DNA of 64,000 nt from Thermodesulfovibrionales bacterium. GTDB taxonomy: Bacteria > Nitrospirota > Thermodesulfovibrionia > Thermodesulfovibrionales > UBA9159. Position 1 is the first letter of the stretch. The number at the start of each line of letters is the position of its first letter. The notes below the pieces were generated by a model that had not been told where the DNA came from, searched no databases, and saw only the letters and a program-made list of their open reading frames with translations. Where the stretch lies: the NCBI GenBank assembly GCA_035686305.1, contig DASRZP010000063.1:4396-68395 (forward strand), in the 5' to 3' direction. Positions 23,043 to 54,987 of the stretch are shown in pieces. The position numbers were made by a program, and so were the translations under genes.

Positions 23043-25529
<2,487 letters not shown>

Positions 25530-26709: not shown

Positions 26710-26775
26710 TATTTAAACTATTTAAGACTATTACTCTTAAGTCATGCGATCTTAAGAGGAACCATTAACAAAGTG

Positions 26776-26823: not shown

Positions 26824-26831
26824 TATAGAGC

Positions 26832-28945: not shown

Positions 28946-29941
28946 TCATTCCTTGACAGGGCTCCAGGTCGCATCGGGATTATATGATTTCATCTCGCGA
29001 GCGATCTTGGTTGTCTCCGGTCCGAGGTTCTTCTGATAGACCTTTCCCTGCTGATTGACAATAAAGGTCATGATACCTGATTTCCCCCAGTTTGCGGGGA
29101 ATGCGACAAAGGCAAAGCCCGCAACCATATTGCCGTTAATAACGTAATCGTATTTTCCCCCTGCAGCATGCTTTCCCTGTTTTGTCAGGATTCTAAAATA
29201 GTAGCCGTGAAATGGTGTCGACTCTTCCCTGAAGGCTGCCTTCTTTTTCTTATACCCCTCTTTCCAGGCCTGAGCAACGAGCTCGCCGAAGGGACTCACC
29301 TCTTCTCCCGGCTTCGTCCTCCAGAAAAGACCGTTCTTCCTGCCGGGGTCGCTTCGCAATTTTTGCGCATAAGCCAGCATTCCGGTATCCTCCCAATCTT
29401 TCAGTGCATACTCCCGTTGCGCCTTCACGTATGTACGGCAGACCAGTATGGCGGTGAGCTCGTTTTCACCAATACGGCGATTGAGAATCTCTTCCTTGCC
29501 CGCTTTCGTATCGAAAAACCACTGATCACCCTTTCTGGCAATCGGGATCGGAAAGGGCCAGTTTTCATCGCCTATATAAAGGATCACCGTTGAATCATTC
29601 TCCTTGACGAGATCGGTCTTCTCTGCCAAATGCTTCGCAAATGCCTCAAGTCCGGCGGCGTGCTGCACCTCATCATCAGTGAGAAGCTCTTTTCTGGCGG
29701 GCCCGAAAATCTGGTCCAGTTCGGCCGCGTCCTTTGACTTTACAGCTTCAACCATTGCCTTCAGAGCGTCTTCTGGTGAGGCAAAGTACCGTTGGGAAGC
29801 TGCGCCGACCTCCGGCACGGTCCCCATAATGACCAAGATTGCAAAAGCCAACAACATAGAGAAGAAAGCAATCCTCCGTTCTGATCTTAATGCGGAGCCA
29901 TCGGGAATTGTCTTCATAGTCTCTTTCCTTTCATTATCCAA
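28946..29941 (-). CDS. DUF2950-family secreted protein
   Basis: Signal/TM segment FFSMLLAFAILVIMG. The C-terminal block GYYFRILTKQGKHAAGGKYDYVINGNMVAGFAFVAFPANWGKSGIMTFIVNQQGKVYQKNLG is the typical DUF2950 core. Confidence 0.7.
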   Translation of the reverse strand: MDNERKETMKTIPDGSALRSERRIAFFSMLLAFAILVIMGTVPEVGAASQRYFASPEDALKAMVEAVKSKDAAELDQIFGPARKELLTDDEVQHAAGLEAFAKHLAEKTDLVKENDSTVILYIGDENWPFPIPIARKGDQWFFDTKAGKEEILNRRIGENELTAILVCRTYVKAQREYALKDWEDTGMLAYAQKLRSDPGRKNGLFWRTKPGEEVSPFGELVAQAWKEGYKKKKAAFREESTPFHGYYFRILTKQGKHAAGGKYDYVINGNMVAGFAFVAFPANWGKSGIMTFIVNQQGKVYQKNLGPETTKIAREMKSYNPDATWSPVKE

Positions 29942-29987
29942 TCATGTTCCCTGTTTGTGTGAAGCTTTTTAAGCCAATCCGCTCCAG

Positions 29988-36353: not shown

Positions 36354-37499
36354 CTATGGCGATTTCGTTAATCCGTTCTTCTGCCAGGTCATTACCCTGG
36401 ACAGCGCGTAAAAGGGTAGCTTCCAAAAACTACGGCGCCAGACACTCTTGAGGAATCCCGGAAACATGATAAGTTTATACAGCCGCCCTCTCTCTCCTGC
36501 GACCCGGGAATGCTGACACCAAAGATCGAGCATTGCTCTCCAGCGGGTGGGCGGGTTCATCGTGACGTTATACTCGATATACTCAATCCACGGTACCGGA
36601 AGGTCCCGAATGCTTTCGAGGACTTCCGAAGGAACGGCAGCCGAAACCGTCTTTCGCAGATAAGCGAGGCTTTCTCTCAGAGGCAAGATGAGGCGCCGCT
36701 TCAAGGCTTGCGCAATGAGGCGGTTCCAATCAATTTCGGATTGTGCGGTGTTGAGAATGGTCATTGCATCTGCTACCCAGCGGAAGGGCGGCGTGTAATT
36801 CCACCGTGCTCCGTGAATGCAGACGTGCAACAATTGGTCGGTCGGATTCAGGGCGAGGGTAGCAACGTCATGGATGGTGACGGGTCTCGCCCCATCCCAA
36901 AAATCATCGTCGGCGTTCATCCCCCGGGATTGCGACAGCACGTGCCAATGAAGATCGAATTCCTGACCGGCGGCATTCTTAAATCCATGGGAAAAACTCA
37001 CCGAGATATACTCCTCCGTCGGCATGAAATCCATGGGGGCCCATCCCAGACTCTGTAACAGCTCGATTGCAGGCAAGGCCTTATCCATTCGAATGAGGAC
37101 GTCAAAATCGTTCATCGGCCGGAGCCCGTAATCTTTGTAATACCCTATGGTAAGGGGGGCTCCTTTCAAGATCAGGGTCTCTATCTCTGCTTCGCGAAAA
37201 GAACAGAGGAGAGAGGCGATAGCATGGAACAGCATCTGATTTTTGTACCACGTCTGGCGATAGACGCCCTTGTATTTCCCCATAGACGGATCCTTCAAAC
37301 CATGGGTCCGGAGATTCCGATAAAGGAGCGGCAGCATGCGGTGGGAAGCGGAATCAACCTGCTCTACGTCGACGGACGATTTCCATGCCTTCCACGCCTC
37401 GACGGCGTCCTTGCCGCGTAAAAGCGCAGCCCGCAGGAGCAACTCCTGTTCCGGTGAAGGCAAACTGTATCGTTTAGATTGCCCTCTCCTCATGTGCAA
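36354..37499 (-). CDS. NTP_transf_5-family (uncharacterised) nucleotidyltransferase; last gene of the operon
   Basis: 381 aa. LKGAPLTIGYYKDYGLRPMNDFDVLI carries the NTase-fold G-x-D-x-D core, with a helical N-terminal region as in the NTP_transf_5 family. It overlaps the upstream gene by 10 nt. Confidence 0.7.
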   Translation of the reverse strand: MHMRRGQSKRYSLPSPEQELLLRAALLRGKDAVEAWKAWKSSVDVEQVDSASHRMLPLLYRNLRTHGLKDPSMGKYKGVYRQTWYKNQMLFHAIASLLCSFREAEIETLILKGAPLTIGYYKDYGLRPMNDFDVLIRMDKALPAIELLQSLGWAPMDFMPTEEYISVSFSHGFKNAAGQEFDLHWHVLSQSRGMNADDDFWDGARPVTIHDVATLALNPTDQLLHVCIHGARWNYTPPFRWVADAMTILNTAQSEIDWNRLIAQALKRRLILPLRESLAYLRKTVSAAVPSEVLESIRDLPVPWIEYIEYNVTMNPPTRWRAMLDLWCQHSRVAGERGRLYKLIMFPGFLKSVWRRSFWKLPFYALSRVMTWQKNGLTKSP

Positions 37500-38824
37500 T
37501 CCCCCTCCTTCACGCCGTCCGCCCCACCAGGAGATGAAAAGGTCTGGATGAATTTTGTCATTGCCCGAACCTCATGATATGCGGCCTTCCATTCGTCCGC
37601 TTTCGTTGGATTCAATGGTCTTCCCTCGCAATCGGTGCTTGCTATCCATATGCCGTCGTCGGAGGGTATCTGGTACCGGAAAATCCAGTTGAGAAGCAGG
37701 TCAAGGACCCTGCGGTAATCTGCCGTTCGTTTGTACCGAAGGGCATCGGTCAGGCCTGCAAGGCATTCGGCCTGCACCCACCAGACCTTCTCGGTGTTTG
37801 ACGCGGGCTGTTCACCAAAGCCTTTGAAGTAAAACCCCCCTCTCTTGTAATCGAACCCGTACGTTAAGGCATGGGTGAGAATACTGAAAGAATGGTCCCA
37901 GTCGGGAGGGCTTTCGAGGACCTCCTGTGCACGGATCATTAACCAGGCGAACTCAACATTATGGCCATAGCAGATCTCTTCGAAGCCCTCCCCCTTCACC
38001 TCGCCCCAATCGTCCAGCCGGTACTCACAAAAAGCGCTTGCCTCTTTGGGAAAGAAGAAGGTCTTGTTGATGTGCAGTGCCTCAGTCAGCGCCGATTTCA
38101 CCGAGGCGTCACGAGTCACCTCGTAAAACTCTGTGAGGGCCTCCATCCAGTGCAGATGGGCATTGCCGCTCTTTACGCCGAGAACCCCTGGCAAGCCTTT
38201 CGGATACCATAACATTCCTTGCCCCGAGGATTTCAGAGGGCTGAAGTCTTCTTCTCCATGCTCCCGCCACCCCGGGTGTATCCCGTCGTGAAACTTCTCT
38301 TGTACCTTCTCAAAGAGGAAGAAGGCTTGATCGAGGGGAGCGGACAGGCCGCTTGCACGATAGTATTCAAGGAGGGCATAGAGGACAAAGGCCTGTCCAT
38401 AGAGAGATTTGCAGGGATTGATCACCCGCCCCCTGAGATCGGTTTTCCAGAAGAACCCCCCGTAGTGCTTATCAAGCAAGGCACCAAGCAAGAAGCGGTA
38501 GCCAGCCTCGGCAGCCTTCAGATAATCCCGATTCCCATTGCTGTAGCCCAATCGGTGAGCCATCGAAAAAACGAGGAGGAGACGGGATTGAGAGACCAAT
38601 TGTTTTTCTCCCGTCCTGCGACCGTTACGGCAAAGGGCTGCTGAAATCCATGCATGGAGACGGTTTGGCCTGTTCCGTGAAGGGGAAAGTCTGTCCGACA
38701 GGATATACCCGCCGTTTGCCAAGTCTACGGCCGTGTCATGCCAGTAGGGCATTACCTTCTCGCGCAGGCAGCGATCCAATTCTTCTGCTATTGCGCTTTC
38801 ACTGATTTCTTCGAAATCGATCAT
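37490..38824 (-). CDS. AGE-family (N-acylglucosamine 2-epimerase / cellobiose-mannose epimerase-like) alpha/alpha6-barrel enzyme
   Basis: YWHDTAVDLANGGY, QSRLLLVFSMAHRLG, GGFFWKTDLRGRVINPCKSLYGQAFVLYALLEYY, NAHLHWMEALTEFY, YGHNVEFAWLM. Confidence 0.75.
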   Translation of the reverse strand: MIDFEEISESAIAEELDRCLREKVMPYWHDTAVDLANGGYILSDRLSPSRNRPNRLHAWISAALCRNGRRTGEKQLVSQSRLLLVFSMAHRLGYSNGNRDYLKAAEAGYRFLLGALLDKHYGGFFWKTDLRGRVINPCKSLYGQAFVLYALLEYYRASGLSAPLDQAFFLFEKVQEKFHDGIHPGWREHGEEDFSPLKSSGQGMLWYPKGLPGVLGVKSGNAHLHWMEALTEFYEVTRDASVKSALTEALHINKTFFFPKEASAFCEYRLDDWGEVKGEGFEEICYGHNVEFAWLMIRAQEVLESPPDWDHSFSILTHALTYGFDYKRGGFYFKGFGEQPASNTEKVWWVQAECLAGLTDALRYKRTADYRRVLDLLLNWIFRYQIPSDDGIWIASTDCEGRPLNPTKADEWKAAYHEVRAMTKFIQTFSSPGGADGVKEGDCT

Positions 38825-39831
38825 GACTCCTTCTTTATCTCGCCCAGCAATCTCTTCATAAGCTGTTGTCTCAGATATCTCCCTGTGAATCGATCAGCCG
38901 AGTCAGATGCGAGAAATCTTATGGCCGCTTTTCTGAAGGAGACGATTTCTTCCTGTGACATATCCTTAATCATCCGAAAGATTCGCGCGGGGTCTTGATC
39001 CCTGCAGTCTATATAACAATCGGAAGGGAAGGTTTCCTTTACAAACGCTCCTCCGCCCCAGTAGAGGGGAACAGCACCCGATCGAAAGGCATCGAGCATC
39101 TTTTCCGTGATGTATCCGGGGAGATCGCAGTTTTCAAAAGCCAGAATAAAATTATATCTTCTCAGGGTCTTCTGCTTGTCTTCGGCAGTGCCGCAATAAT
39201 TGGGAAAGGTGACCCATTTGTTTCGTTGTCCTCCCCACGGTTCCGCCCCATAAATGTCGATATCCTTTCCCATGGCCTCAACAAAGCGAATTCTCTCCCG
39301 AAGCAGATTGAGTTCAGGACGTTCGGAATACCGGTTGATGATGCAACAAAGCCTGGAGCGTCGTTCCGTAAGATTCCGCTCCAAAAGAGAGAGAGTCTTA
39401 GCTCTGCCATTGGCAAGGGCCGGATAAAACATGCGCCTGTTGATATCGGGTTCATTATACAGATAGAGGGATGGTTTCAACACTTCAGACTGGATATTTC
39501 TTCTCGTCTCTTCGGTCATGGCCGGAAGGGGCTCAAGGGTAAAGAATAGCTTCGCCTTTTGGAAGAGCACAAACTCATGGTGAAGAAAATTCTGAGCAAC
39601 GAGATAATCATGCTTCCGCTTATGAAAAAGAGAGGGAAGGTTATGGAGAAAATGATAGACCGAAGGATAAAAAAGAACCCCTCCTTCACGATTTCCTACG
39701 CCGGTCATTTTGACAATCTTCCTGTTCTTATAGGTAGAAAAATAAAATAATCCCTGCCAGCTAACGTAGAATCGGAACCTTTTAATCAATCCGGCAGCAG
39801 CCCCGTACATAATATCTCTTAATCTCCTCAC
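38821..39831 (-). CDS. GT10-like (alpha-1,3/4-fucosyltransferase family) glycosyltransferase
   Basis: YNFILAFENCDLPGYITEKMLDAF matches the GT10 signature FxLxFENSxxxxYxTEK. Confidence 0.65.
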   Translation of the reverse strand: MRRLRDIMYGAAAGLIKRFRFYVSWQGLFYFSTYKNRKIVKMTGVGNREGGVLFYPSVYHFLHNLPSLFHKRKHDYLVAQNFLHHEFVLFQKAKLFFTLEPLPAMTEETRRNIQSEVLKPSLYLYNEPDINRRMFYPALANGRAKTLSLLERNLTERRSRLCCIINRYSERPELNLLRERIRFVEAMGKDIDIYGAEPWGGQRNKWVTFPNYCGTAEDKQKTLRRYNFILAFENCDLPGYITEKMLDAFRSGAVPLYWGGGAFVKETFPSDCYIDCRDQDPARIFRMIKDMSQEEIVSFRKAAIRFLASDSADRFTGRYLRQQLMKRLLGEIKKES

Positions 39832-40553
39832 GATGTTGAGCCTTCTCCGGTCGTTGACTTTCGGCGCCTGTCAAGGGATGCCTTAAGAATGCGCACAACA
39901 TCGGTCTGAGAACCACGCTCGCGAATACCCATGTTGGCGGTATGGATCCGCCTCAACGTAACGACTTCATCGAGAACGATGCTCTTGAGGCCCTTCTCCG
40001 CCGCCTTCAGATACCAGTCAATAAAGTCGCCCACTCTCCATGTTGTTTCAAAGAGTCCGACATGAAAAAAAGACTCCCGTTTGATGAGCATGCTGCCCTT
40101 GAAGACCCCCGGCATGACCTCGGCAGGGATGCGGACGCTTTTTCTCTCATCCTCATCGAGTTCCGGACTGTAAAACTGTTTGACCTGTCCGAATACCATG
40201 TCCACGTCGGGACTGTCTTCAAAGACCGCCACCTGATGCATTAATTTATCTTCGTTCCAGAGGTCGTCAGCATCGAGAAAGGAGAGAAAAGATCCGCCAC
40301 ACAACATTATGCCCCTGTTGAGGGCGGCACCGACACCGCCGTTGGTCTGGTAGACGTATCGTACCTCTGAACCAAAGCTCTTTGCTACCCCGGCGCTGTC
40401 GTCCGTCGAGCCATCATCCACCACAATGACCTCGATCGGCCCATAGGTCTGGCAGAGCACGCTCTCTATCGCCTCACAGAGGTATTTTTCGCCATTGAAG
40501 ACCGGAATAATGACGCTCACCAAGGGATCGGTTATTTCGTGAAACCTAAGCAT
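39828..40553 (-). CDS. family 2 glycosyltransferase (operon paralogue d)
   Basis: LVSVIIPVFNGEKYLCEAIESVLCQTYGPIEVIVVDDGSTDDS...FLDADDLW, with C-terminal ILKASLDRRRK. Confidence 0.85.
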   Translation of the reverse strand: MLRFHEITDPLVSVIIPVFNGEKYLCEAIESVLCQTYGPIEVIVVDDGSTDDSAGVAKSFGSEVRYVYQTNGGVGAALNRGIMLCGGSFLSFLDADDLWNEDKLMHQVAVFEDSPDVDMVFGQVKQFYSPELDEDERKSVRIPAEVMPGVFKGSMLIKRESFFHVGLFETTWRVGDFIDWYLKAAEKGLKSIVLDEVVTLRRIHTANMGIRERGSQTDVVRILKASLDRRRKSTTGEGSTS

Positions 40554-40568
40554 TCTGGTGTACTGACA

Positions 40569-41693
40569 TCAGAGGCGGATTTTCTTGATCCGCAGGGAAA
40601 TCTGTTCCCTTCGGTAAAGATAAGAGTACAAAAGATATTTCTTAAAGCCCTCATCCCGCAATATCCTGTAATGTGCCTTGATCGTCCGTATCAAAAGGTG
40701 CCCCAGTCCCTGCCTCGGTCTCCATAGAGCCCTTGCTCTCTCGCGTATGGTTTTGCTTTCCGCGTACAGAGCCAATCTCTTGAGTTCCGCTTTGTTCCAT
40801 AGCCTTGCGCCGTAATCTTCAAACTCCTCGGTGGCGACCTTCACTCCTATCGAACCGAGGCTTTGAACATTCTCTTTAGCCTCTCTCAAGGTATTCATGG
40901 CGGGTACGACGACATCGCAGGGAGAGTTCTGAATGCACCATACGAGGTGTCGCTGGGCAGGGGTCAGAGATAGATTGTTCTCAGGGTGGTCTTTACGGCC
41001 TGCGGACTCGAAGACACTGATTTTCATTTCCCATTGCGATGGAGCACAATCCCAGCAAAAGAGTTTCATAGCCACGATGCCGACATCGTGCTCCTCGGCA
41101 ATCGGAAAGAGTTCTTCGTTAGCCTGTTGAACCTTCCAGTTAAAACGTATCATGATATAGTCAATCATGTCAGTTTCACGGATGACCTTGCCGATCGTGG
41201 GGAAGAGGTTTATCGCGTGGCAGCTAAGGCCGATATTTTGGACGAGGTCCTCTTCCTTGAATTTTCTCATCGCTTCACAAGCCGCAACGATATCGTCATA
41301 GGAAGCGTCCCCGTCTCCGACACTTGCGAGAAATAAAGGCGCACGGGAATAGCCGAGAATGGCAAGTCGTGACTCAAGTTCCGAGCGGAGCTTCTGATGC
41401 CATTGCTGGGCCGAAATGAAACCCCCGTAAAGGGAAATCACGACATCCTCTTTGATATTCGCACGCCGAAAAGAATCGGCCAGCAGTTCCACTTCTTCCT
41501 TATAGGTCGTGTCAAAATAATTTACGCCGGATGAAACAAGGTAATGAATAAGGTGTGCTCGGTCGTCGGGAGAAAGGAAGAACTCAGGACCATTGCCTAC
41601 AGGATGGGTGTGCCCTCCCAGCCCAAGCACATTCACTTCAAACCCTGTCCGACCAAGCCTTCGCAGAACTCTTCCTGCTTCGTTTTCCATCAC
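40569..41693 (-). CDS. aldo-keto reductase with about a 40-aa basic C-terminal extension
   Basis: RLGRTGFEVNVLGLGG...NYFDTTYKEE (AKR N-terminal and D/Y catalytic context). The extra tail is LIRTIKAHYRILRDEGFKKYLLYSYLYRREQISLRIKKI. Confidence 0.7.
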   Translation of the reverse strand: MMENEAGRVLRRLGRTGFEVNVLGLGGHTHPVGNGPEFFLSPDDRAHLIHYLVSSGVNYFDTTYKEEVELLADSFRRANIKEDVVISLYGGFISAQQWHQKLRSELESRLAILGYSRAPLFLASVGDGDASYDDIVAACEAMRKFKEEDLVQNIGLSCHAINLFPTIGKVIRETDMIDYIMIRFNWKVQQANEELFPIAEEHDVGIVAMKLFCWDCAPSQWEMKISVFESAGRKDHPENNLSLTPAQRHLVWCIQNSPCDVVVPAMNTLREAKENVQSLGSIGVKVATEEFEDYGARLWNKAELKRLALYAESKTIRERARALWRPRQGLGHLLIRTIKAHYRILRDEGFKKYLLYSYLYRREQISLRIKKIRL

Positions 41694-42913
41694 CGGCCCT
41701 CTGACGAGAACTTTTCCTTGATCCAGTTCGAGAGTTGCCCCCTCCTGTAATGATATGAGAACTGGACGTACTTCCCGAGACCTTCATTTTTTAATATTCG
41801 ATAATGCGCCCTGGCAGTCCGCCGCAATGTTTCACCTATGCTCTGTGTCCGCTTAGGCTTCGGAATTCTTGCCTTATTGGGCGCAAGCGGGATTCTGCAC
41901 AAGTCCCGCGCCAGCACATTGGTCGAAATCAATGAGAGCCACAGGGTGAACTCGGATGTCAAGTCAAAGTCGGCGTTCGTGAATTCCCATTGTTTGCTCA
42001 TGCCGGAAAGCCAGCTGCCATCGGTCCTTTGCAGCGCCATAATGTTCTTCGCCACGTGCATCGCAATGTCCCGGTACCTCGCCTCACCGGTGATACGGTA
42101 AAGCATGGCACATCCCCAAGCAGCCTTCCCGCTTGAGTAGCCGTCCCAGGGGTCAATGCAGCGCTGCTGAAAGTCAAAGTACCATTGAGCCAGCTCCCGG
42201 TACGCGGTCTCTTGGGTTGCACTTTCCAGCAGCACAAGGAAAGCCAGAGGGAGGCCCACAGCAAACCAGCACTGGTCTGCCTTCTTTGTATCGACGACAC
42301 GCAGAAAGGCGTCGTGGTCGTCTTTCGGCTCTGTATACAATTGACCGTCAGCTTTCACGGCGGTGAAGAAGCGGTCATCTGATGCGGGTTGCAGTTTTAT
42401 GAGGTACGAAAGATAGTCTGCAACGCGCCTGGCTTGATCAATCATCCCTGCCGCCAAACAGGCAATGCCGGCCGCACTGGAAGATGCGGTATCTGCCATC
42501 TCTTTCCCGCCATGGTCCGTGAGCCGTGAATAGAAGCCCCCGTGATCATCGGCCTGCTGGGTAAGTAAAAAAGACAGTGCAGGCAGAGCGATATCGTAGC
42601 GGCCTGCGCGCATGCTGCCGGCGACAAGATAAGCGTTGACATACGGGTAATGTCCTGTAATGTGCCATGGATGCGCACGGGGCAAGAAATCTCCTCTTGC
42701 GGTAGAAAAATTCTGACGAACGTAGGTTAGCGATCGGTGGGCTGAAGGGGAGAGGCCGGTCTCTGTCAATGCCCAGCCCGCCTTGTAAAAAGCATCCACC
42801 TTAGGATCTCTCAAGCGCTTCCAACTCCCGTCCCGATTCTGGTGAGCGACGAGCCATCGGCTCCCGGCAAGGGCGCGCTCGCAAATCTGCTTTGGTGTCA
42901 AAGGCTTGGCCAT
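41690..42913 (-). CDS. terpenoid-cyclase/prenyltransferase-repeat-like alpha/alpha-barrel protein with the same C-terminal extension
   Basis: RWLVAHQNRDGSW and LQRTDGSW repeats (Q..DGSW type). Tail LRRTARAHYRILKNEGLGKYVQFSYHYRRGQLSNWIKEK. The start is ATG 42913, 4 nt after the upstream stop; the track start 42976 would overlap by 59 nt. Confidence 0.5.
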   Translation of the reverse strand: MAKPLTPKQICERALAGSRWLVAHQNRDGSWKRLRDPKVDAFYKAGWALTETGLSPSAHRSLTYVRQNFSTARGDFLPRAHPWHITGHYPYVNAYLVAGSMRAGRYDIALPALSFLLTQQADDHGGFYSRLTDHGGKEMADTASSSAAGIACLAAGMIDQARRVADYLSYLIKLQPASDDRFFTAVKADGQLYTEPKDDHDAFLRVVDTKKADQCWFAVGLPLAFLVLLESATQETAYRELAQWYFDFQQRCIDPWDGYSSGKAAWGCAMLYRITGEARYRDIAMHVAKNIMALQRTDGSWLSGMSKQWEFTNADFDLTSEFTLWLSLISTNVLARDLCRIPLAPNKARIPKPKRTQSIGETLRRTARAHYRILKNEGLGKYVQFSYHYRRGQLSNWIKEKFSSEGR

Positions 42914-42917
42914 CTGA

Positions 42918-43781
42918 TCAGTCTTCTGCCTTCCCTTCTGCCAAATCGGAAAGTATTCCCGAAGGTTCTTCCCCAATGCAAGAGAGCCTGGGCAGGGACT
43001 CAGCCGGACTCCGGGTTTTCTCCCTGCGGCGGTCGAGTGACTTCTTGAGCATGTTGATAAAATAGTGATTCCCTAATTGTTCCTGATTTGTCATATTACC
43101 TCCATGTCGCCGATAAAACTGTGTCACGTCCCTGTGTACCACCATCGAGACGCCGTGTTCTCTGGCCCGCATGAACCAGTCCCAATCATCGCAATACCTT
43201 TGTGTTTCATCAAAACGACCGACACTATCAAACACCGATCTCCTGAAGAGTGCACTGCCGACACTCATGGCAAGTACGGGGTTTCCCCATTCCCTGAATA
43301 TATGTCTGCCTCCGACAATATCCGTGAAGATCATGATCTGTGTATATCCAATAACAATGTCTGCAGAGGGCGCGGCGTTCAAGTACCAAAGCTGTCGGTC
43401 CAGCTTTTTCTCGCTCCAGAGGTCATCGACGTCCAGGAATGCGATCACATCTCCCTCGGCTTCATCCAATCCTCGGTTTCGGGCCGCAGGAAGTCCTCTG
43501 TTCGGCTGATGAACATAACGTACGTCTCCCTTGAGTCCGTCGGCGATCCTTTGGGTATTGTCCGTCGAGCCGTCATCTACAATAATAATTTCTAATGGGT
43601 CGTGCTCCTGCTGCCGGATGCTCTCTACGGCCTCGGCCAGAAAGGCCTCTCCGTTATAGACAGGAATTATGACGCTGACGAAGGACGGGGGTAACTCCAT
43701 CTCAGCCTCTCGCAAAAGGAATCGTTGGTATCGATCCTCCTCGCTCTGTATCGAATGACTTTTATCACGGAGTCTCTCCAT
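42918..43781 (-). CDS. family 2 glycosyltransferase (paralogue a)
   Basis: FVSVIIPVYNGEAFLAEAVESIRQQEHDPLEIIIVDDGSTDNT...FLDVDDLW...MLKKSLDRRREK. Confidence 0.85.
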   Translation of the reverse strand: MERLRDKSHSIQSEEDRYQRFLLREAEMELPPSFVSVIIPVYNGEAFLAEAVESIRQQEHDPLEIIIVDDGSTDNTQRIADGLKGDVRYVHQPNRGLPAARNRGLDEAEGDVIAFLDVDDLWSEKKLDRQLWYLNAAPSADIVIGYTQIMIFTDIVGGRHIFREWGNPVLAMSVGSALFRRSVFDSVGRFDETQRYCDDWDWFMRAREHGVSMVVHRDVTQFYRRHGGNMTNQEQLGNHYFINMLKKSLDRRREKTRSPAESLPRLSCIGEEPSGILSDLAEGKAED

Positions 43782-44544
43782 AGCCTGATGAATTCTTTCG
43801 ATGCGTCATAATCTTTTCGAGGTTGTTCAGTTTCGGAAAGGGCTCAACCTGTCTATCCCCTTGCTGTCGGCGACGATCAAGGGACTTTTTCAATGTCTTT
43901 ATAAAATAGCTGTTCCGTAACGTTGAATCAAGGGTCATGTTGGACCCGTGCCGGCGATAAAAGAGGGTTACCTCCTGCTGTAGATCTATCGAGATTCCCA
44001 TTTCCCTGGCCCGCATAAACCAGTCAGTATCTTCACCATAGCGAAGGGTTTCGTCAAAGACGCCAACCTTCTCAAGGACGGATTTTCGAAAGAGTCCGGC
44101 ACTCAGGAGAAGGGCACAGAAAGGATCATGCCATTTTTCAAACCGTGGTCTGCCACCTTCGCCCCACTGCAATTTCATCGGCTGGCTGAGACCCAAAACG
44201 ATCTCCACCGAAGGGGCCTCTGCCAGACGGGCAAGCTGGAGCGGAATCTTATTCCTGCTCCAGAGATCATCGACGTCGAGGAAGGCGATAAGCACTCCTT
44301 GAGAGATCTGCAATCCCCTGTTGCGGGCTGCAGCCGGACCACGGTTCTCCTGTTGAAGATACGTGATATCGTTGCCATAACTCCTCGCAACGGCCTCTGT
44401 ATCGTCCGTGGAGCCGTCATTCACGACGATCACCTGCATCGGCCGGTGGTCTTGGGACAGTGCGCTTTCGATTGCCTCAGCCAGGTAACGCTCGCCGTTA
44501 TATACAGGGATAATGACACTCACGAGGCTGTCTCTACCGATCAT
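43765..44544 (-). CDS. family 2 glycosyltransferase (paralogue b)
   Basis: LVSVIIPVYNGERYLAEAIESALSQDHRPMQVIVVNDGSTDDT...FLDVDDLW...TLKKSLDRRRQQ. Confidence 0.85.
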   Translation of the reverse strand: MIGRDSLVSVIIPVYNGERYLAEAIESALSQDHRPMQVIVVNDGSTDDTEAVARSYGNDITYLQQENRGPAAARNRGLQISQGVLIAFLDVDDLWSRNKIPLQLARLAEAPSVEIVLGLSQPMKLQWGEGGRPRFEKWHDPFCALLLSAGLFRKSVLEKVGVFDETLRYGEDTDWFMRAREMGISIDLQQEVTLFYRRHGSNMTLDSTLRNSYFIKTLKKSLDRRRQQGDRQVEPFPKLNNLEKIMTHRKNSSGYGETP

Positions 44545-45247
44545 GAGAATTTCCGCTTTTCTGATCTCGCTGTCGCCCGATTGTCCGTCTGATCAGGGAA
44601 AGCACTTCCCTTCTGTTTGTCCGTACGTCGGAAGAAAGATTCCGGTCATGAATCCGTTTATAGAGCAATACATCGGGGATTATGAACATGGGGACATCTC
44701 GATCCTTCGCACGTTTAAACCATTCGACGTCACAGGCTATGCTGAGGGCAGGATCGAAGCTGCCGATGAGATTGAAGACAGACCTTCGGGCGAGCAGGGT
44801 GCCTGGCGTCCGACCTACATGGACCTGATCCAGAAACGTTTTCGTATGCCCCGGCCTCAGGCGGGCTCCCGGCTCGACAAAGAACTTCACCCATGCGTTC
44901 ACATAGTGAATCTCAGGGTTTTGCAGGAGATAATCGACCTGAGTGGAGAGCTTGTTCGATAGCCAAAGGTCATCGGAGTCCAGAAATGCGATCAGTTCCC
45001 CCTTGGCAGCTTCTAGTCCCGTATTACGACCGCACGCCAAGCCCCGGCCTCCCTGACAGATGTACTTGACCGATCTGAAAAATTGCGAGATCGGGGCGGT
45101 ACGGTCAACTGAGTTTCCGTCAACAACAATGACCTCATAGGGAGCGTAGTTCTGGGTGAAGATGCTTTGAAGTGCGGGAATGATAAAGCGTTCGCCGTTG
45201 AGTACGGCAACGATAACGCTCACGAGAGGCCTAGCCATGTCTTTCAC
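44534..45247 (-). CDS. family 2 glycosyltransferase (paralogue c, more divergent)
   Basis: LVSVIVAVLNGERFIIPALQSIFTQNYAPYEVIVVDGNSVDRT...FLDSDDLW. Confidence 0.8.
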   Translation of the reverse strand: MKDMARPLVSVIVAVLNGERFIIPALQSIFTQNYAPYEVIVVDGNSVDRTAPISQFFRSVKYICQGGRGLACGRNTGLEAAKGELIAFLDSDDLWLSNKLSTQVDYLLQNPEIHYVNAWVKFFVEPGARLRPGHTKTFLDQVHVGRTPGTLLARRSVFNLIGSFDPALSIACDVEWFKRAKDRDVPMFIIPDVLLYKRIHDRNLSSDVRTNRREVLSLIRRTIGRQRDQKSGNSHDR

Positions 45248-46529
45248 GTTTCTCCTCTATCGCTTTTGTCACGGATGCCCAATCCCCAGGGCCGTCTCCG
45301 AGAATCTTTTCAGCATGAACGGCCATGGCGGTTCCGCAGAGTGAATCGATCCTCCGGATGACCTTGAGCGCCGCGTGGTTCCACGTCCAGTGTTGACGTG
45401 CCCGCAGGGCTCCCTCCGTCCCCTTCCTGACGATCTCCTGCCTTGAATGATATGCTTTTTGGAGAAGTTCCTCAAGGTGCTCCTTATCCGGTTCAAGGAG
45501 GAACCCCTCTTGGTTGAGTTCGTGGCCACAAACCTTCTTGACGCTCCGTCTGTCTGCATCGATCCGCCATCCCACCTCCTCATCCACAAAATCATCGGTA
45601 GCGCCGCCGAGGCTCACGATGACCGGAAGACCGCTGGCCATAGCCTCAAGCGTCGGCAGGGAGAAGCCTTCGCCGCGATAGGAAGAGACAAAGACGTCGC
45701 AGGCCCGGTAGAGCCTTGCCATCTGCTCTTTGTTGAATTCATCGGCAAGGTAGAGGACCTCCGGCATGCCCTCTCGGTCCTGAAATCTCCTGATGAGGTC
45801 CTGTGCCGTCTGACCCCTGTACAGGGTCTTTACACCGAGATCTTTGATGATCAGGCAGACATCGTCTTTCGAGGTGAAGGCGCGGGAGTAACTCTCAAGG
45901 AGAATGTCAATCCCCTTGCGATAGATAGTACCACCGACAAAGAGGAACATAAAGCCTTTGCTTGTTGGAAGTCTGAGAGGCCCTCCTAGTGGAGAGAAGG
46001 TATCTGTGTCTACGCCGTTGGGGATGACATGAACCTTGGCAGCATCGAGACCTGACGAGACAAAGGCGCTGCGGGAGAACGTTGACGGCGTCCAGATCTC
46101 CTCAGCAAGGGCAAAGGTGTCGGTATAGAATTGAGGCACTGCGGAATATTCCCAGGGGTGCATGATGATCCATAGGGCCTTGCCGGGCGGATTTGGCCGG
46201 GGAGGCCATTGGTGGCGCACCCAGACATAGGGTCGCTTCGAAGGGTCACGAAGGGAAAACCCCTTCATGCGGATGTCATGAGTCCGTAGTCTTTCGAATC
46301 GCGGGTTGCCCTCTGGAGAAAACTGATCCGGCTCGTAAGGGACGGTGGTGAGTTCTGCAACTCCGAAATCAAGAAGGCTTGAACAGATCTCCCGGTTTAC
46401 GAGAGAGAAGGAAGTCACTGCAAACTGGGTACCCTCCCAAAAGATATGGACCTGTTGTTGAAGATCGAGGGCCGTATCAGGGCTGATCAACCGATGAAGG
46501 GCCGTATGATTTACTAAACGCTCATTCAT
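45231..46529 (-). CDS. GT4-type (GT-B fold) glycosyltransferase
   Basis: C-terminal VFVSSYRGEGFSLPTLEAMASGLPVIVSLGGATDDFV (E-x7-E region). Confidence 0.8.
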   Translation of the reverse strand: MNERLVNHTALHRLISPDTALDLQQQVHIFWEGTQFAVTSFSLVNREICSSLLDFGVAELTTVPYEPDQFSPEGNPRFERLRTHDIRMKGFSLRDPSKRPYVWVRHQWPPRPNPPGKALWIIMHPWEYSAVPQFYTDTFALAEEIWTPSTFSRSAFVSSGLDAAKVHVIPNGVDTDTFSPLGGPLRLPTSKGFMFLFVGGTIYRKGIDILLESYSRAFTSKDDVCLIIKDLGVKTLYRGQTAQDLIRRFQDREGMPEVLYLADEFNKEQMARLYRACDVFVSSYRGEGFSLPTLEAMASGLPVIVSLGGATDDFVDEEVGWRIDADRRSVKKVCGHELNQEGFLLEPDKEHLEELLQKAYHSRQEIVRKGTEGALRARQHWTWNHAALKVIRRIDSLCGTAMAVHAEKILGDGPGDWASVTKAIEEKRERHG

Positions 46530-46617
46530 TAGGGTCCCCGGAATTCAAGAAGCCGCAGGGGTTGCCATGATCTCCGGGGACAGAAGAGATCGTCTCCTCC
46601 AGCCAGACGAGAACGGG

Positions 46618-48435
46618 TCAGGAGAGAGCATGACCGCCCTGTTTGCGCGTACGCATCCTGTCCAGACTCTTTTTGAAGACCCGGAGCGAATTCAGTTCAA
46701 CGGTGGTCTTGTTGCAGGTCATGTTCCTCCCATGCCTTCGGACGATGAGGGTCACGGCTTCCAGTCTCCTGATGGGCAGCTTCAATTCCTGTGCCCGCGT
46801 AAACCAGTCCGTGTCTTCACCAAAGAGCAGGGTTGGATCAAAGAGCCCCACCTTTGTGAAGGCCGATCTCCGGAACAGTGCCGCTCCGATAGAATAGGGA
46901 AAGGATTCTGCCGGATTTCCACTGTATTCATATTCACGGGTTGCGTCGGTGTAGTGAGCGAGCTGGGCGTAACCATGTATGACATCAATCTCCTCGTCTT
47001 GCAACAATTCCTTTACGAGCATCGGGAGGTTGTTCTTCGGCCACAGGTCATCGACGTCGTTGAAGGCGACAAATTCGCCTGTTGCTTCTATGACCCCTTT
47101 ATTCCTTGCTGTTGCAGGGCCGTGGTTATCCTGATAGAAATATCGGATTTCCGTCGGCAACTGTTCAACGATATCCCTGGTCTTATCGGTGGAACCATCG
47201 TCGATGATGATGATTTCCAAGGAAGGATAGCCCTGAGACAGGATATTCTCCACCACTTCCCGGATGAAGGGTTCACCATTGAATACCGGGATGATGACGC
47301 TTACCACCGGCCATACTCTTGGAGAGGCGTGTGGTTCCGGAGCGCTATCGTACCTCCTCGGGACGCCTGCAGCGCTTTCACGAGCGAGGGTTTGTAAAAC
47401 CTCGGAAAGAGCGACCGGGATATGCGCAAGATCGCGGCCGAGTTCGAGATTGAAGCACGGGAGGCTTGCCGACAGCTGATTGAGAAACTCATAGGTCTTA
47501 ATGCCGGCGCCGGGCAGCTGAGTCATCGTCGTGAAGGATGCTGCCCGAAGAATGTTTTCTGAAGATGTTGTCGTGAGCCGCGACTTGTCGTTGCCTGAAA
47601 TATGGGGGACGATGACCGCCTTCAGGGGCATCGCCTTCATGATCTGACCGCTGAATGCGGGATGGAGAAACATGACCGCCTTCTCATCCTTGAGGTTCTT
47701 GGTGTTCGAAATGAACCGGCCAAATTCGGGGAAATGTTCGACATGGTCGGCATTGAGTTTTGCGGTGTTATATAAGCTGAATGCGCAGGGTTCCGGCTTC
47801 AGCCGTGCCACGATGTAATCGTCACCGAGATAAAAGAGGCCCGATTTTAGAGAGGAGAGAGCCGTCGTTGATTTACCGATCCCTCCCTTACCTGTCAAGA
47901 GAACGGCACCCCTTTCCGTTCCGACGGCTGCTGCGTGAACAAGCTGGCATTCGTTCTTCTCCAGCCACCAGTGGAGTAAAGTCCTGAGGGGTGCGGCATT
48001 CAGCCAGGAAGGAAGACCTGCAGCATGGTCTACCCAAAAGAGACCCCTCCTTGCTTCAAGGTCCATCATGTTCAGGGAGAATTCAAACCAGTGGAAGGCG
48101 GTCTTAATCCTGCTGCTGTTATACCCCCAGATGTCTCCCCGGTACGTGTACCGGTCGCGCTTCCATGGCGGGGGAGGCATGTTGGTATTCGTTGATGTGC
48201 TGTCCCATAAACAGATGGTCAAATCAGGCGCCTCGATTTGAGGTATCCTGAGATGACTGAAAGCGGGTGTGATATGGTGAATTAATGCCCGGCCTGCAAA
48301 GGAGAGGCGGAGGGTAGTGTCGCATATCCGGTAATAGAAATCGATCTCCCCGGCAGACTCCCTTGCTTCCAGGTATCGATGATAGACATTCTGAAAAAAT
48401 GCTACCTGTTCTTCTACCGTTTCTAAGGTGTCCAA
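46618..48435 (-). CDS. fusion protein: HprK-related P-loop (HPr-kinase-C-like) domain plus family 2 glycosyltransferase
   Basis: aa ~170-215: LVHAAAVGTERGAVLLTGKGGIGKSTTALSSLKSGLFYLGDDYIV (HprK-C-like P-loop followed by DD). aa ~375-605: VVSVIIPVFNGEPFIREVVENILSQGYPSLEIIIIDDGSTDKT...FNDVDDLW...VFKKSLDRMR. The GT2 part belongs to the same subfamily as the stand-alone GT2s. Confidence 0.75.
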   Translation of the reverse strand: MDTLETVEEQVAFFQNVYHRYLEARESAGEIDFYYRICDTTLRLSFAGRALIHHITPAFSHLRIPQIEAPDLTICLWDSTSTNTNMPPPPWKRDRYTYRGDIWGYNSSRIKTAFHWFEFSLNMMDLEARRGLFWVDHAAGLPSWLNAAPLRTLLHWWLEKNECQLVHAAAVGTERGAVLLTGKGGIGKSTTALSSLKSGLFYLGDDYIVARLKPEPCAFSLYNTAKLNADHVEHFPEFGRFISNTKNLKDEKAVMFLHPAFSGQIMKAMPLKAVIVPHISGNDKSRLTTTSSENILRAASFTTMTQLPGAGIKTYEFLNQLSASLPCFNLELGRDLAHIPVALSEVLQTLARESAAGVPRRYDSAPEPHASPRVWPVVSVIIPVFNGEPFIREVVENILSQGYPSLEIIIIDDGSTDKTRDIVEQLPTEIRYFYQDNHGPATARNKGVIEATGEFVAFNDVDDLWPKNNLPMLVKELLQDEEIDVIHGYAQLAHYTDATREYEYSGNPAESFPYSIGAALFRRSAFTKVGLFDPTLLFGEDTDWFTRAQELKLPIRRLEAVTLIVRRHGRNMTCNKTTVELNSLRVFKKSLDRMRTRKQGGHALS

Positions 48436-48472
48436 GGACTATTCCCGATGGCAGGGATCGTTAACGAGACAG

Positions 48473-48946
48473 TCATTGCCTGTTGACGGGAAGGTCATCC
48501 CGGGAGCTTGGCCAGCCTGTTTCATCGACGTCATGAATCGGGTCCAGCAAGAGAAGGTCCTGCATATCGGTGTATTTATGTAACACGGGGTGCACGAAGA
48601 TTTCCGGACCTTCACGGTGGCTTGCTGCTTCGCAGCCGGCACGACCGAGGGCCTCTTCACTTCCCCCCCCTTCGTCCGTTACAATGAGATCCTCCCGTTG
48701 TAGTTCGCTCATCAGCCGATTGAGAGCCTCTTCTATCTCGCCTCTGTCAGCCCTGTACCGACCTGCAATCCATTCGATGATTCCGTTGAGATCGAAGCTT
48801 CTGTTGATAAGTCCCCATATGTCCGCGCCCGCCCCATCAAGACTGTAATAGTTGCCGCTATCAAGATGGACCAGGACGGTCTCTCCGTCAATGGTCTCAT
48901 GGATGACTTTAGGACTATTGATCCTGAACCGTGAACCCTCTGTCAT
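48473..48946 (-). CDS. PqqD-family (RRE-type peptide-binding) protein with a C-terminal extension; first gene of the operon
   Basis: N-terminal ~95 aa: FRINSPKVIHETIDGETVLVHLDSGNYYSLDGAGADIWGLI...IIEWIAGRY...EIEEALNRLMSELQREDLI, the PqqD pattern (beta strands, then .lN.tg..iW.l., then helices). An extra ~60 aa ends ...HKYTDMQDLLLLDPIHDVDETGWP... Confidence 0.75.
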   Translation of the reverse strand: MTEGSRFRINSPKVIHETIDGETVLVHLDSGNYYSLDGAGADIWGLINRSFDLNGIIEWIAGRYRADRGEIEEALNRLMSELQREDLIVTDEGGGSEEALGRAGCEAASHREGPEIFVHPVLHKYTDMQDLLLLDPIHDVDETGWPSSRDDLPVNRQ

Positions 48947-49150
48947 CGACGTATCCTTTCTCTTGCCGTATCTTCCATGCTGAAGAGAGCGGTCAAGAAG
49001 ACGAATGGTTCATGAGCTGAATTGTGAGGGGAAAGCACTGCTGACCACTGGCGGGCCTTTTCTGTCTTTTTCCCGATGCCTTCCGACCTCGCATCACGTA
49101 CCTAATCCTTGGGATTGCTGTCTTTTGAACGTCTCAACGTCTGCAGGAGC

Positions 49151-49159
49151 ATTATAGCA
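49151..49159 (-). promoter_or_regulatory. extended -10 promoter element for the minus-strand operon
   Basis: The minus strand reads TGCTATAAT (TGn + TATAAT), about 205 nt upstream of the PqqD ATG. No good -35 element. Confidence 0.4.
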
Positions 49160-49296
49160 CACAAATCCTCCCTCTTTCTCTCCGGAAGCAGAACGTTCTC
49201 AAGATGAACCGTTGGGATCAAAGTCCTCTCGAGGACGCGGAACCGGCCTCTAGAGCGGGCATCGATGACGGAGGCATCAAGAGAAAGGGGCGAAAT

Positions 49297-54291: not shown

Positions 54292-54984
54292 ATGCTGCTG
54301 TGTGATTTCCATATTCATACAACCTATTCTGACGGCTCAGTGGAGCTGAGGAGGACAGTCGATCTTTTCGGACAGGCAGGCTTTGATGTCATAGCGATAA
54401 CAGACCATGTCGTTAATGGCGACAACCCGCTCGGCAAACTCGCCCACCGGTTTCGGCTTTCCGTAACAGCCGCCAACTTCGAAGAATATATCGAAGACAT
54501 AAAAGAGGAAGCTGAAAGAGCCCAGGCCAAATACGGCATGCTCGTCATTCCCGGAATTGAGATAACCAAGAACCATCGTACCACAGATACTTCAGCCCAC
54601 ATCTTGATCATTGACGTCCAGGACTTTATTCCCGCCTGCATGAGTTATGAAGAGATATTTCTCGAGGCGAAAAGGCAGAAGGCCCTGACGATAGCCTGCC
54701 ATCCGCACTACATGTCGGCGATGACTGACAGGGATACCCTCTTTCTCTGGAACAACAGGGAACGGTATGCGCGCTACATCGACGCCTGGGAGATCGCCAA
54801 CCGCGATGATGTGTTTAACGTTATTAGCCTGAAGAAGTATCCCTATGTTGCGAACAGCGACTTCCACAAGCCGAGGCACCTCTATTCGTGGAAGACACTG
54901 CTCAACTGCGAGAAGGATACCGCTTCCATCAAGGAATGTATAAAACACAACAAGGGTGTCGCACTCACACTCTTCAGGAATTAG
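54292..54984 (+). CDS. PHP-domain metal-dependent phosphoesterase
   Basis: LLCDFHIHTTYSDGS (PHP motif I), AITDHV, ILIIDV, IACHPH. Confidence 0.75.
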   Translation: MLLCDFHIHTTYSDGSVELRRTVDLFGQAGFDVIAITDHVVNGDNPLGKLAHRFRLSVTAANFEEYIEDIKEEAERAQAKYGMLVIPGIEITKNHRTTDTSAHILIIDVQDFIPACMSYEEIFLEAKRQKALTIACHPHYMSAMTDRDTLFLWNNRERYARYIDAWEIANRDDVFNVISLKKYPYVANSDFHKPRHLYSWKTLLNCEKDTASIKECIKHNKGVALTLFRN

Positions 54985-54987
54985 GAG

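Follow-up and report, generated by a model that had tools for sequence, protein, structure and literature searches.

The window analyzed here, a stretch of 64,000 nucleotides from contig DASRZP010000063.1 of a metagenome-assembled Thermodesulfovibrionales (Nitrospirota) genome, carries an operon that combines a peptide-recognition protein with a kinase-like domain, a nucleotidyltransferase-fold enzyme and numerous glycosyltransferases (GTs). The recognition protein belongs to the PqqD family and represents an RRE, that is, a recognition element of the type found in pathways for peptides that are made on the ribosome and modified after translation (RiPPs). The operon spans positions 36354-48946 and consists of twelve tightly packed open reading frames (ORFs), all located on the minus strand (ORF table). 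In the order of transcription, they encode:

48473..48946, minus strand: gene 1, PqqD-family RRE protein of 157 aa with a C-terminal tail (Pfam PqqD, E 7.8e-14)
47341..48435, minus strand: gene 2, N-terminal part (residues 1-365), HprK-related P-loop domain (weak matches to Hpr_kinase_C, TIGR04352 and TIGR04355)
46618..47340, minus strand: gene 2, C-terminal part, GT2 domain fused to the kinase-like domain (Glycos_transf_2, E 5e-33)
45231..46529, minus strand: gene 3, GT4 (Glycos_transf_1, E 1.3e-15, and Glyco_transf_4)
44534..45247, minus strand: gene 4, GT2 (Glycos_transf_2, E 8.6e-25)
43765..44544, minus strand: gene 5, GT2 (Glycos_transf_2, E 5.2e-32; C-terminal LKKSLDRRR)
42918..43781, minus strand: gene 6, GT2 (Glycos_transf_2, E 2.7e-36)
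41690..42976, minus strand: gene 7, AprG-like alpha/alpha-barrel sugar aldolase homologue (likely start 42913, 407 aa)
40569..41693, minus strand: gene 8, aldo-keto-reductase-like protein (Aldo_ket_red, E 2.7e-11)
39828..40553, minus strand: gene 9, GT2 (Glycos_transf_2, E 5.5e-32)
38821..39831, minus strand: gene 10, GT10 fucosyltransferase-like protein (Glyco_transf_10, E 7.4e-14)
37490..38824, minus strand: gene 11, AGE-family sugar 2-epimerase/isomerase (GlcNAc_2-epim, E 1.4e-31)
36354..37499, minus strand: gene 12, NTP_transf_5 (PF14907) nucleotidyltransferase-fold enzyme (PF14907, E 3.8e-41)

Adjacent genes are separated by gaps of 37, 88, ~4 and 15 nt or overlap by 4-17 nt, according to the ORF table and the gene-caller starts, which were taken from the identical public contig. 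The longest version of ORF7 would overlap its neighbor by 59 nt; with the called start, at 42913, a gap of 4 nt remains. An earlier note on this DNA, made from the sequence alone, had described twelve minus-strand ORFs with overlaps of 4-17 nt and gaps of at most 88 nt, and both the layout and its coordinates proved correct. The Pfam scan likewise recovered the five GT2, the GT4, GT10, aldo-keto reductase and AGE assignments made there, as well as PqqD (E 7.8e-14) and NTP_transf_5 (E 3.8e-41). One of the five GT2 domains lies within the product of gene 2, a 605-aa fusion protein in which it occupies residues 379-487.

Sequence comparison places the RRE of gene 1 in the lasso-B1 type. The AlphaFold model showed pLDDT values >90 for residues 11-90, and the best Foldseek matches were the lasso B1 proteins TbiB1 and TfuB1, both in complex with leaders. 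When PDB sequences were searched with a profile of the gene 1 family, TbiB1 (4.7e-17) and the paeninodin-type PbaB1 (2.8e-13) scored best, LppB (9x8z) reached 1.9e-6, and genuine PqqD just 0.28. The best PqqD model in NCBIfam was lasso_PqqD_Bac, with 48 bits against a cut-off of 80. No NCBIfam model reached its cut-off for either the RRE protein or NTP_transf_5, and the public record names them just 'PqqD family protein' and 'nucleotidyltransferase family protein'.

The most telling feature of gene 1, which the earlier note had overlooked, is a leader-like tail fused to the RRE. The region downstream of the RRE is composed of three parts:

48599..48670, minus strand: residues 93-116, hypervariable linker between RRE and tail
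48509..48598, minus strand: residues 117-146, tail with the leader-like motif F-x-x-P-x-L-x-K-Y followed by a near-invariant segment
48476..48508, minus strand: residues 147-157, variable C-terminal end rich in S, K, P and D

All family members share this layout, with an RRE of ~90 residues, a linker of ~25 residues, the motif plus conserved segment, and a variable end. The near-invariant segment comprises 21 residues (126-146) and reads [TS]-D-M-Q-D-L-L-L-L-D-P-I-H-[DE]-V-D-E-x-G-W-P; the tail segment after the leader-like motif is DMQDLLLLDPIH-like. We expressed conservation as the mean top-residue frequency over 116 sequences. It amounted to 0.68 for the RRE overall, 0.93 for its peptide-pairing strand (residues 29-37), 0.28 for the linker and 0.76 for residues 117-125. 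Residues 126-146 reached 0.92, on par with the pairing strand, and the variable end, 3-20 residues long across the family, 0.37. F117, P120, D135, P136, G144, W145 and P146 are invariant in the 116 sequences, and F, P and L of the leader-like motif are invariant or nearly so. In a set of 175 sequences, the aromatic residue at motif position 1 is Phe in 168, Tyr125 is present in 159, and position 126 is Thr or Ser in 160. The last residue is not conserved and is Ser in eight of them.

The RREs of lasso peptides and of linear polyphosphorylated peptides (LPPs) bind their leaders via a [Y/W]xxPx[L/V/I/F/A] motif (PMC13381572, PMC6784204), and F-x-x-P-x-L of the tail fits its spacing. The linker is predicted to be disordered (pLDDT <50 for residues 94-110). 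Despite this, residues 111-130 were modeled with a pLDDT of ~80, and two short strands are predicted there, at residues 115-116 and 123-125. Relative to the aromatic residue, they correspond to positions K-18/Y-16 and M-12..Q-7 of LppA, whose backbone forms hydrogen bonds with LppB in the crystal structure (PMC13381572). The leader-like motif thus probably occupies the peptide groove of its own RRE in cis, as judged from the model. Residues 131-146 received a pLDDT of just 57-62 despite top conservation. This combination suggests that they bind partners other than the RRE, and non-RRE partners have also been proposed by the LPP authors for the distal part of the leader (PMC13381572). LppB is insoluble without its leader (PMC13381572). 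The tail peptide itself gave zero matches against PDB sequences.

For the P-loop domain of gene 2, the HprK-like call of the earlier note held at the level of motifs and fell short at that of profile scores. Hpr_kinase_C matched with 20.7 bits against a gathering score of 33.3, and TIGR04352 (26.4 bits) and TIGR04355 both with ~26 bits against a cut-off of 200. Among solved structures, HprK/P (1ko7, E 0.03) matched the P-loop region best. The Walker A and DD motifs, HAxAVG...G-K-G-G-x-G-K-S-T...DD, are kept in 72 family members, as in the P-loop region of HprK. The product of gene 12 was modeled with a pLDDT of 91 as a Pol-beta-type nucleotidyltransferase fold. Its nearest structures were MenT1, LnuA and ANT(2'')-Ia, with the ribitol-phosphate transferase FKRP as a weaker match; a search against PDB sequences gave no meaningful match. 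In its family, D133 is invariant and D131 nearly so, and the two residues match the essential D134/D136 pair of PsmN (PMC6993621).

These enzymes have experimentally studied relatives. In paeninodin-type lasso clusters, the C-terminal Ser of the precursor receives its phosphate from an HprK-like kinase (PMC8498205). In pseudomycoidin biosynthesis, PsmK phosphorylates the C-terminal Ser, and PsmN, described as an 'uncharacterised NTP transferase', is required for the attachment of one to two hexoses to the phosphate (PMC6993621, PMC8498205); a D134A/D136A double mutant of PsmN is inactive (PMC6993621). The LPP clusters occur in Bacillota; there, Ser3 of the LppA core peptide is polyphosphorylated by LppK (Popov et al., Nat Commun 2026; PMC13381572). 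The peptide precedent that the earlier note had invoked for kinase and PqqD is supported: kinase and transferase act on a peptide serine in two characterized relatives (PMC13381572, PMC6993621). To the two places from which the earlier note knew the PqqD/HprK-like/NTP_transf_5 trio, the LPP clusters add a third, experimentally studied context (PMC13381572).

The combination is widespread. We found 2881 relatives of the PqqD protein in the protein database; nearly all of the 120 listed measure 144-165 aa and cover 89-100% of the query in the alignment. With one genome scanned per species, at least 555 species proved to encode the tailed RRE. The hosts include Nitrospirota, Thermodesulfobacteriota, Chloroflexota, Cyanobacteria, Acidobacteriota, Ignavibacteria, Gemmatimonadota and Methylomirabilota, among them the cultured cyanobacteria Oscillatoria sp. 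PCC 10802 and Dolichospermum sp. UHCC 0259. A search with the tail only among 1.8 billion representative proteins yielded 1962 clusters at 50% identity. We then determined the neighbors of the RRE gene by unbiased clustering of all ORFs in 87 loci and in a strict set, 35 non-redundant loci flanked by 9 kb or more on either side:

HprK-like protein: 79/87 loci; 35/35 strict loci
GT2: 70-74 of 87 loci (186 copies); 33/35 strict loci, median 3 per locus
NTP_transf_5: 65-66 of 87 loci; 32/35 strict loci
MsbA-like ABC exporter: 46/87 loci; 20/35 strict loci (~57%)
HprK-like protein, GT2 and NTP_transf_5 together: 31/35 strict loci
Kinase-GT2 fusion: 11/35 strict loci

The first four were the only widely shared neighbors in the 87 loci. 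The conserved core consists of the tailed lasso-B1-type RRE, an HprK-like protein that is often fused to a GT2, two to four GT2s, and NTP_transf_5. Thus, the trio singled out by the earlier note is real and co-inherited with GT2s (31/35 loci), and the neighborhood analysis proposed there identified HprK-like protein, GT2 and NTP_transf_5 as the conserved partners. GT4, AGE, GT10, short-chain dehydrogenase, NAD-dependent epimerase, sulfotransferase-like protein, fusions of TPR and GT domains, and radical SAM/SPASM proteins occur sporadically, as does an ABC-2 transporter in cyanobacteria.

The sub-type represented by the window has the order RRE, kinase-GT2, GT4, GT2s, AprG-like protein, reductase, GT2, GT10, AGE, NTP_transf_5. 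The kinase-GT2-led, exporter-less arrangement was found on four other distinct contigs from Nitrospirota and related lineages. Three of them closely match the order in the window, and the fourth (L089) is a shorter variant. Because the operon type recurs at 54-75% protein identity on other Nitrospirota contigs with different flanking genes, the arrangement is not due to chance. We conclude that the operon is a GT-rich, exporter-less member of a large uncharacterized cassette family. In the literature searched, we found no published description of this family, and a full-text search on NTP_transf_5 returned no papers.

Radical SAM/SPASM genes lie inside the cassette of a deltaproteobacterial locus (L070, 14927-16003) and of five others. 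The best NCBIfam matches of the encoded protein were the PTO1314-family radical SAM model and ScmE, and several further ones were peptide maturases, all below cut-off. These genes hint at extra peptide chemistry in some variants.

No separate precursor gene became apparent. In 80 loci, clustering revealed no conserved small ORF, just gene fragments and Oscillatoria-specific intergenic repeats, so the check for a co-varying small ORF suggested by the earlier note came out negative. Each locus has a single tail motif, invariably as part of the PqqD protein; a second copy was absent within 10 kb on either side in the loci and from the 64-kb window. An ORF of 33 aa ending in SSS (48993-49094, minus strand), located between a promoter-like element and the PqqD gene, was considered as a precursor and rejected. 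It is present in identical contigs only, is not conserved in relatives, and is probably spurious. An 87-aa upstream ORF in a 75% relative (L088) is unrelated. The search for stand-alone tails returned ~40 short entries among the best matches. Most of them start within helix 3 of the RRE protein or in the linker and resemble truncated gene calls.

We also inspected the window for membrane, export and lipid-carrier functions, screening all ORFs of at least 150 aa for hydrophobicity and ~40 ORFs, including all polytopic ones, with Pfam. As the earlier note had stated, none of the twelve operon proteins has a credible transmembrane segment; the two most hydrophobic stretches are conserved cores of soluble folds. 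Among the window genes examined, we detected no Wzx, Wzy, priming transferase, ABC exporter, Wzm/Wzt-type ABC genes or signal-peptidase-like gene. An Asn-synthetase-like cyclase (C) and a transglutaminase-like peptidase (B2) were absent from the operon and from the conserved neighbors. No peptidase domain was found in the twelve products or the flanking genes scanned, and a SipW-like peptidase is not a conserved neighbor in the 87 loci. Within this scope, the lack of lasso cyclase, leader peptidase, priming transferase and Wzx/Wzy noted before was confirmed.

The absence of an ABC exporter, also noted before, is true of the sub-type in the window and not of the family. It is a trait of this sub-type because ~57% of the related loci (20/35) possess an MsbA-like exporter. 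The NCBIfam matches of these exporters (MsbA, HepA, glucan ABC, PglK) ranged from E 1e-53 to 1e-81 and were all below cut-off. Polytopic membrane proteins other than ABC exporters were found in or beside the cassette in nine of 80 loci. They comprised three ABC-2 permeases, two Wzx-like proteins, three proteins with unrelated Pfam domains and one without a Pfam match. A regular presence of Wzx/Wzy in homologous loci, which the earlier note had named as an argument for an ordinary polysaccharide locus, was not observed, as Wzx-like proteins were confined to two of the 80 loci. Priming transferase, Wzy and chain-length regulator are not conserved neighbors in these loci.

In a Methylomirabilota locus (L071, 6457-8379, plus strand), a Wzx-like flippase (Polysacc_synt) takes the usual exporter position, and in the cyanobacterial loci L033, L035, L036 and L050 an ABC-2 permease with its ATPase (~1.7-3.5 kb) does so. 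By gene position, this looks like non-orthologous exporter replacement. Enzymes of the GT2 and GT4 families that use undecaprenyl-linked intermediates are usually peripheral and lack transmembrane segments, and the genes for priming transferases such as WecA often lie elsewhere. For these reasons, the lack of transmembrane segments, which the earlier note had held against a lipid-linked acceptor, does not support that conclusion.

Among the sugar-tailoring genes, gene 7 required reassignment. ORF7 gave zero Pfam matches. It was aligned with AprG (PDB 9lfi/9c95) over residues 28-356 (AprG 12-336), with E 1e-40 for the single sequence and 1.7e-68 with a profile, and by this comparison is a full-length AprG homologue. 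AprG is described as the aldolase that forms the bicyclic octose core of apramycin (PMC11033246, citing Fan et al. 2023). The earlier designation as a 'terpenoid-cyclase-like alpha/alpha barrel' was right about the fold and missed the closer relative. A terpenoid cyclase was discarded, as squalene-hopene cyclase gave just a weak repeat match that the AprG homology replaces. Unlike AprG, ORF7 carries an extra basic C-terminal extension of 44 residues, which it has in common with the C-terminus of gene 8 (55% identity; 41690-41830 and 40569-40700, minus strand). AprG-like homologues of ~340 aa lack the extension, and several of the ~400-aa forms that have it are encoded on contigs that also carry cassette genes. 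The extension may serve as a cassette-specific docking or localization tag. The AGE protein of gene 11 matched a cellobiose 2-epimerase model with E 1e-39, below the model cut-off.

The cassette GT2s often end in a basic helix of the type '...NMT...(~15 aa)...LKKSLDRRR'. It is present at 46618-46700, 43765-43900, 42918-43050 and 39828-39900 and in related loci (L005-L087), and a loose version of LKKSLDRRR occurs in 100 of 164 GT2s from many phyla. Judging from its composition, the helix could bind membranes or the acidic invariant tail of the RRE protein.

Upstream of gene 1, direct reading confirmed an element pointed out earlier:

49159..49151, minus strand: extended -10-like element TGCTATAAT

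The sequence is present as described and has no -35 partner. It represents a consensus match only, because a promoter/terminator scan of the region was no richer than shuffled sequence. The window itself is core chromosome next to the replication origin. A Pfam scan identified parA/parB, miaA, anmK, selA, selB, lnt and dnaA-dnaN-gyrB. The genes dnaA, dnaN and gyrB are consecutive at 20563-25529 (plus strand), parA/parB lie at 6173-7763 (minus strand), and the cumulative GC skew has its minimum near dnaA, at ~18-20 kb. Taken together, these features indicate that the window spans the chromosomal origin; the operon is located ~11-24 kb from dnaA. Downstream, it is flanked by an acetolactate-decarboxylase-like gene, Pal and RecD2. 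Upstream and divergent lie genes for two response regulators and a histidine kinase; GH1, PHP and GT21 genes come next. The immediate flanks are not kept with the operon in relatives. The PHP-domain protein and the following membrane-bound GT21 (ceramide-glucosyltransferase-like) GT2 are encoded at 54292-56214 (plus strand), 5 kb upstream of the operon; this pair, too, is not conserved beside the cassette in relatives. Elsewhere in the window, adjacent DUF2950 and DUF3300 proteins are encoded at 28946-31271 (minus strand; Pfam E 1.8e-110 and 8.3e-48). A dip in G+C content to 0.45 (positions 26001-28000, compared with ~0.52 elsewhere) adjoins a DUF763 gene (27689-28768), and the selenocysteine machinery occupies 13086-16946, with selA (minus) and selB (plus) divergent.

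What might the cassette do? We propose an RRE-organized phospho-glycosylation system that is anchored on a peptide or protein, a reading to which we give about even credence. The cassette family would share its ancestry with the tailoring module of phosphorylated lasso peptides and LPPs. The RRE would hold its own tail in the groove and thereby expose the 21-residue segment and the variable end as a handle or substrate for the enzymes. By analogy to PadeK, PsmK and LppK, the HprK-like domain would phosphorylate a hydroxyl group on the presented peptide, with Tyr125, Thr/Ser126 or a Ser/Thr just after G-W-P as candidate sites. NTP_transf_5 would then link the first sugar to the phosphate, as PsmN appears to do, and the fused GT2, the four other GT2s, the GT4 and the GT10 would lengthen the chain to an oligosaccharide. 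Unusual sugars might be made or remodeled by the AGE epimerase, the AprG-like aldolase and the aldo-keto reductase. In ~57% of the related loci, the product would be exported by the MsbA-like protein; here, it would stay in the cytoplasm or use an unlinked transporter, because the operon lacks an exporter. The simplest acceptor would be the RRE protein's own tail; alternatively, the complex would recruit a protein without leader as acceptor. The pathway would need no lipid carrier. The TPR-GT fusions and radical SAM/SPASM proteins in some relatives are typical of protein or peptide substrates. The peptide- or protein-anchored glycosylation suggested in the earlier note thereby gains a candidate acceptor and published enzyme precedent, and its arguments from missing exporter and transmembrane segments become weaker. 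In its strongest form, our proposal says that a small soluble RRE protein replaces undecaprenyl phosphate, resulting in protein-primed, phosphodiester-linked glycan assembly in hundreds of species; the oligosaccharide made on this primer would be retained, transferred or exported. This form we advance only tentatively, as it seems doubtful.

Several points weigh against the phospho-glycosylation proposal. The cassette is known here from genes and predicted structures alone, and docking of the tail into the groove is derived from confidence values and secondary structure only. The tail has no strictly invariant hydroxyl residue, Tyr125 and Thr/Ser126 fall in the segment predicted to pair with the RRE, and, unlike paeninodin-type substrates, the tail lacks a terminal Ser. 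Compared with HprK and the HprK-related TIGRFAMs, the gene 2 domain is only remotely similar. In the sole LPP reconstitution, performed in a heterologous host, LppN was inactive, and the LPP authors suspected a missing LppN partner in the surrounding GT-rich locus (PMC13381572). The exporter classes of the family (MsbA/PglK-like, ABC-2 and, in two loci, Wzx-like) are the classic exporters of lipid-linked glycans. As there is no leader peptidase, a 17-kDa glycoprotein would also be an odd cargo for MsbA-like exporters.

In a possible, if not probable, alternative, the glycan is free or is built on polyprenyl phosphate or another lipid whose priming enzyme is encoded elsewhere, the trio works on the glycan itself, for instance capping its end with a phosphate and a substituent so that growth stops or the chain is marked for export, and the tailed RRE is a scaffold only. 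The kinase-methyltransferase WbdD caps glycans likewise in ABC-dependent O-antigen synthesis. MsbA/PglK/ChvA-like exporters in 20/35 loci, the ABC-2 permease plus ATPase in cyanobacterial loci and the Wzx-like Polysacc_synt protein inside the L071 cassette would fit such a product, and the basic C-terminal helix LKKSLDRRR of the GT2s could bind membranes. The absence of transmembrane segments from the GTs and of a linked priming transferase is, as generally known, normal for lipid pathways. Furthermore, LPP and paeninodin clusters sit in capsule loci (PMC13381572). Such a pathway leaves unexplained, however, why the component kept most constantly, and usually encoded first, is a tailed lasso-type RRE. 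Neither priming transferase nor Wzy nor chain-length regulator is conserved in the 80 loci, 15 of 35 loci, including that in the window, have no linked exporter, and all characterized pairs of HprK-like and PF14907 proteins act on a peptide serine.

Another reading is a conventional RiPP pathway whose precursor, encoded elsewhere or too short and variable for detection, would displace the tail as an autoinhibitory or stabilizing pseudo-leader. Against it, residues 126-146 are conserved beyond the need of a pseudo-leader that fills the groove, and neither a small ORF conserved in 80 loci from many phyla, nor a second motif copy within 10 kb on either side or in the 64-kb window, nor a conserved leader peptidase was found. 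Gene callers do often miss RiPP precursors, six related loci contain radical SAM/SPASM maturase-like genes, and the library holds short proteins consisting of little more than the tail, though most look like truncated calls. A pseudo-leader in cis could even stabilize the RRE, given that LppB is insoluble without its leader (PMC13381572). On balance, we consider a hidden precursor unlikely. That an ordinary GT cluster has come to lie by chance beside a degenerate remnant of lasso tailoring genes is highly improbable. The missing cyclase and peptidase and the sub-threshold Pfam match of the HprK-like domain would agree with a remnant, but the gene set is co-inherited in at least eight phylum-level groups, with recurrent kinase-GT2 fusions, intact catalytic motifs and strong conservation.

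If the phospho-glycosylation proposal is true, the phospho-chemistry of LPPs and paeninodin is not peculiar to Bacillota; what has been seen of it would belong to a cassette that occurs in at least 555 species and at least eight phylum-level groups. The RRE protein would be a natural fusion of an RRE to its own leader, so far a product of protein engineering only. The constant partnership with GT2s would offer a route to settle the role of the PF14907 'N' enzyme, which two experimental studies left open. The cassette may represent a lipid-free, protein-anchored route of glycan assembly and would be categorically new if the protein-primed reading holds. The cultured cyanobacterial hosts, Oscillatoria sp. 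PCC 10802 and Dolichospermum sp. UHCC 0259, make the question directly testable.

Protein-based glycan assembly has precedents. The cyclic beta-1,2-glucan synthase Cgs, operating with ChvA/NdvA, and glycogenin both represent systems in which a glycan is grown on protein, not on lipid. The cassette relatives resemble Cgs-ChvA/NdvA in their MsbA-like exporter, which matches glucan-exporter models with E 1e-50 to 1e-66. In Cgs and glycogenin, however, the synthase itself is the primer and forms a direct glycosidic bond, whereas for the cassette we propose a distinct small RRE protein and linkage through phosphate; a sequence relationship does not exist. HPr-rel-A (TIGR04352), HprK-related kinase B (TIGR04355) and ScmC (PF27840) share with the cassette a remote HprK-like P-loop protein that lies beside a PqqD-family protein in a neighborhood for peptide modification. 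The name ScmC likely derives from the SynChlorMet cassette, according to the NCBIfam entries for ScmE and ScmF. TIGR04352 scored 26.4 bits on the gene 2 product against its cut-off of 200, and no match to the PqqD model TIGR04353 was listed. By these scores, the kinase-like proteins of the cassette form a family separate from HPr-rel-A and without an NCBIfam model of its own.

The closest resemblance is to the LPP clusters and to the paeninodin/pseudomycoidin module (PadeK; PsmK/PsmN/PsmB1/PsmD). With the latter, the cassette shares the B1 RRE, the putative HprK-like kinase, the PF14907-type transferase and the ABC exporter (PMC8498205, PMC6993621), as well as the catalytic Asp pair (D131/D133 in the cassette, D134/D136 in PsmN; PMC6993621). 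In contrast to lasso clusters, it has no Asn-synthetase-like cyclase, B2 peptidase or separate precursor. The C-terminal Ser that serves as substrate of the lasso module is absent from the tail, and up to seven GT domains in the window cassette compare with zero or one in the paeninodin/pseudomycoidin module.

Like the LPP clusters, the cassette lacks a lasso cyclase, carries a [Y/W]xxPx[L/V]-type leader motif and resides in GT-rich loci. A discrete RRE of the lasso/LPP type and an LppN/PsmN-type NTP transferase are present in the window operon. LPP clusters, however, encode a SipW-like leader peptidase of the signal-peptidase type (SpI) and one to three separate precursor genes (YxxPxVLxHQxIxFETxxS), none of which is found in the window cassette. 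The leader-like motif of the latter starts with Phe and is fused to the RRE, whose profile is nearer to TbiB1 (4.7e-17) than to LppB (1.9e-6), and GT2s are core genes that are often fused to the kinase. The MsbA-like exporter, part of the LPP cluster, is absent from the window and present in 20/35 cassette relatives. LPPs have been described as restricted to Bacillota, whereas the cassette occurs in Nitrospirota, Thermodesulfobacteriota, Chloroflexota, Cyanobacteria, Acidobacteriota and others. In its operation, the cassette is most like the LPP clusters and the paeninodin/pseudomycoidin module, yet it belongs to neither.

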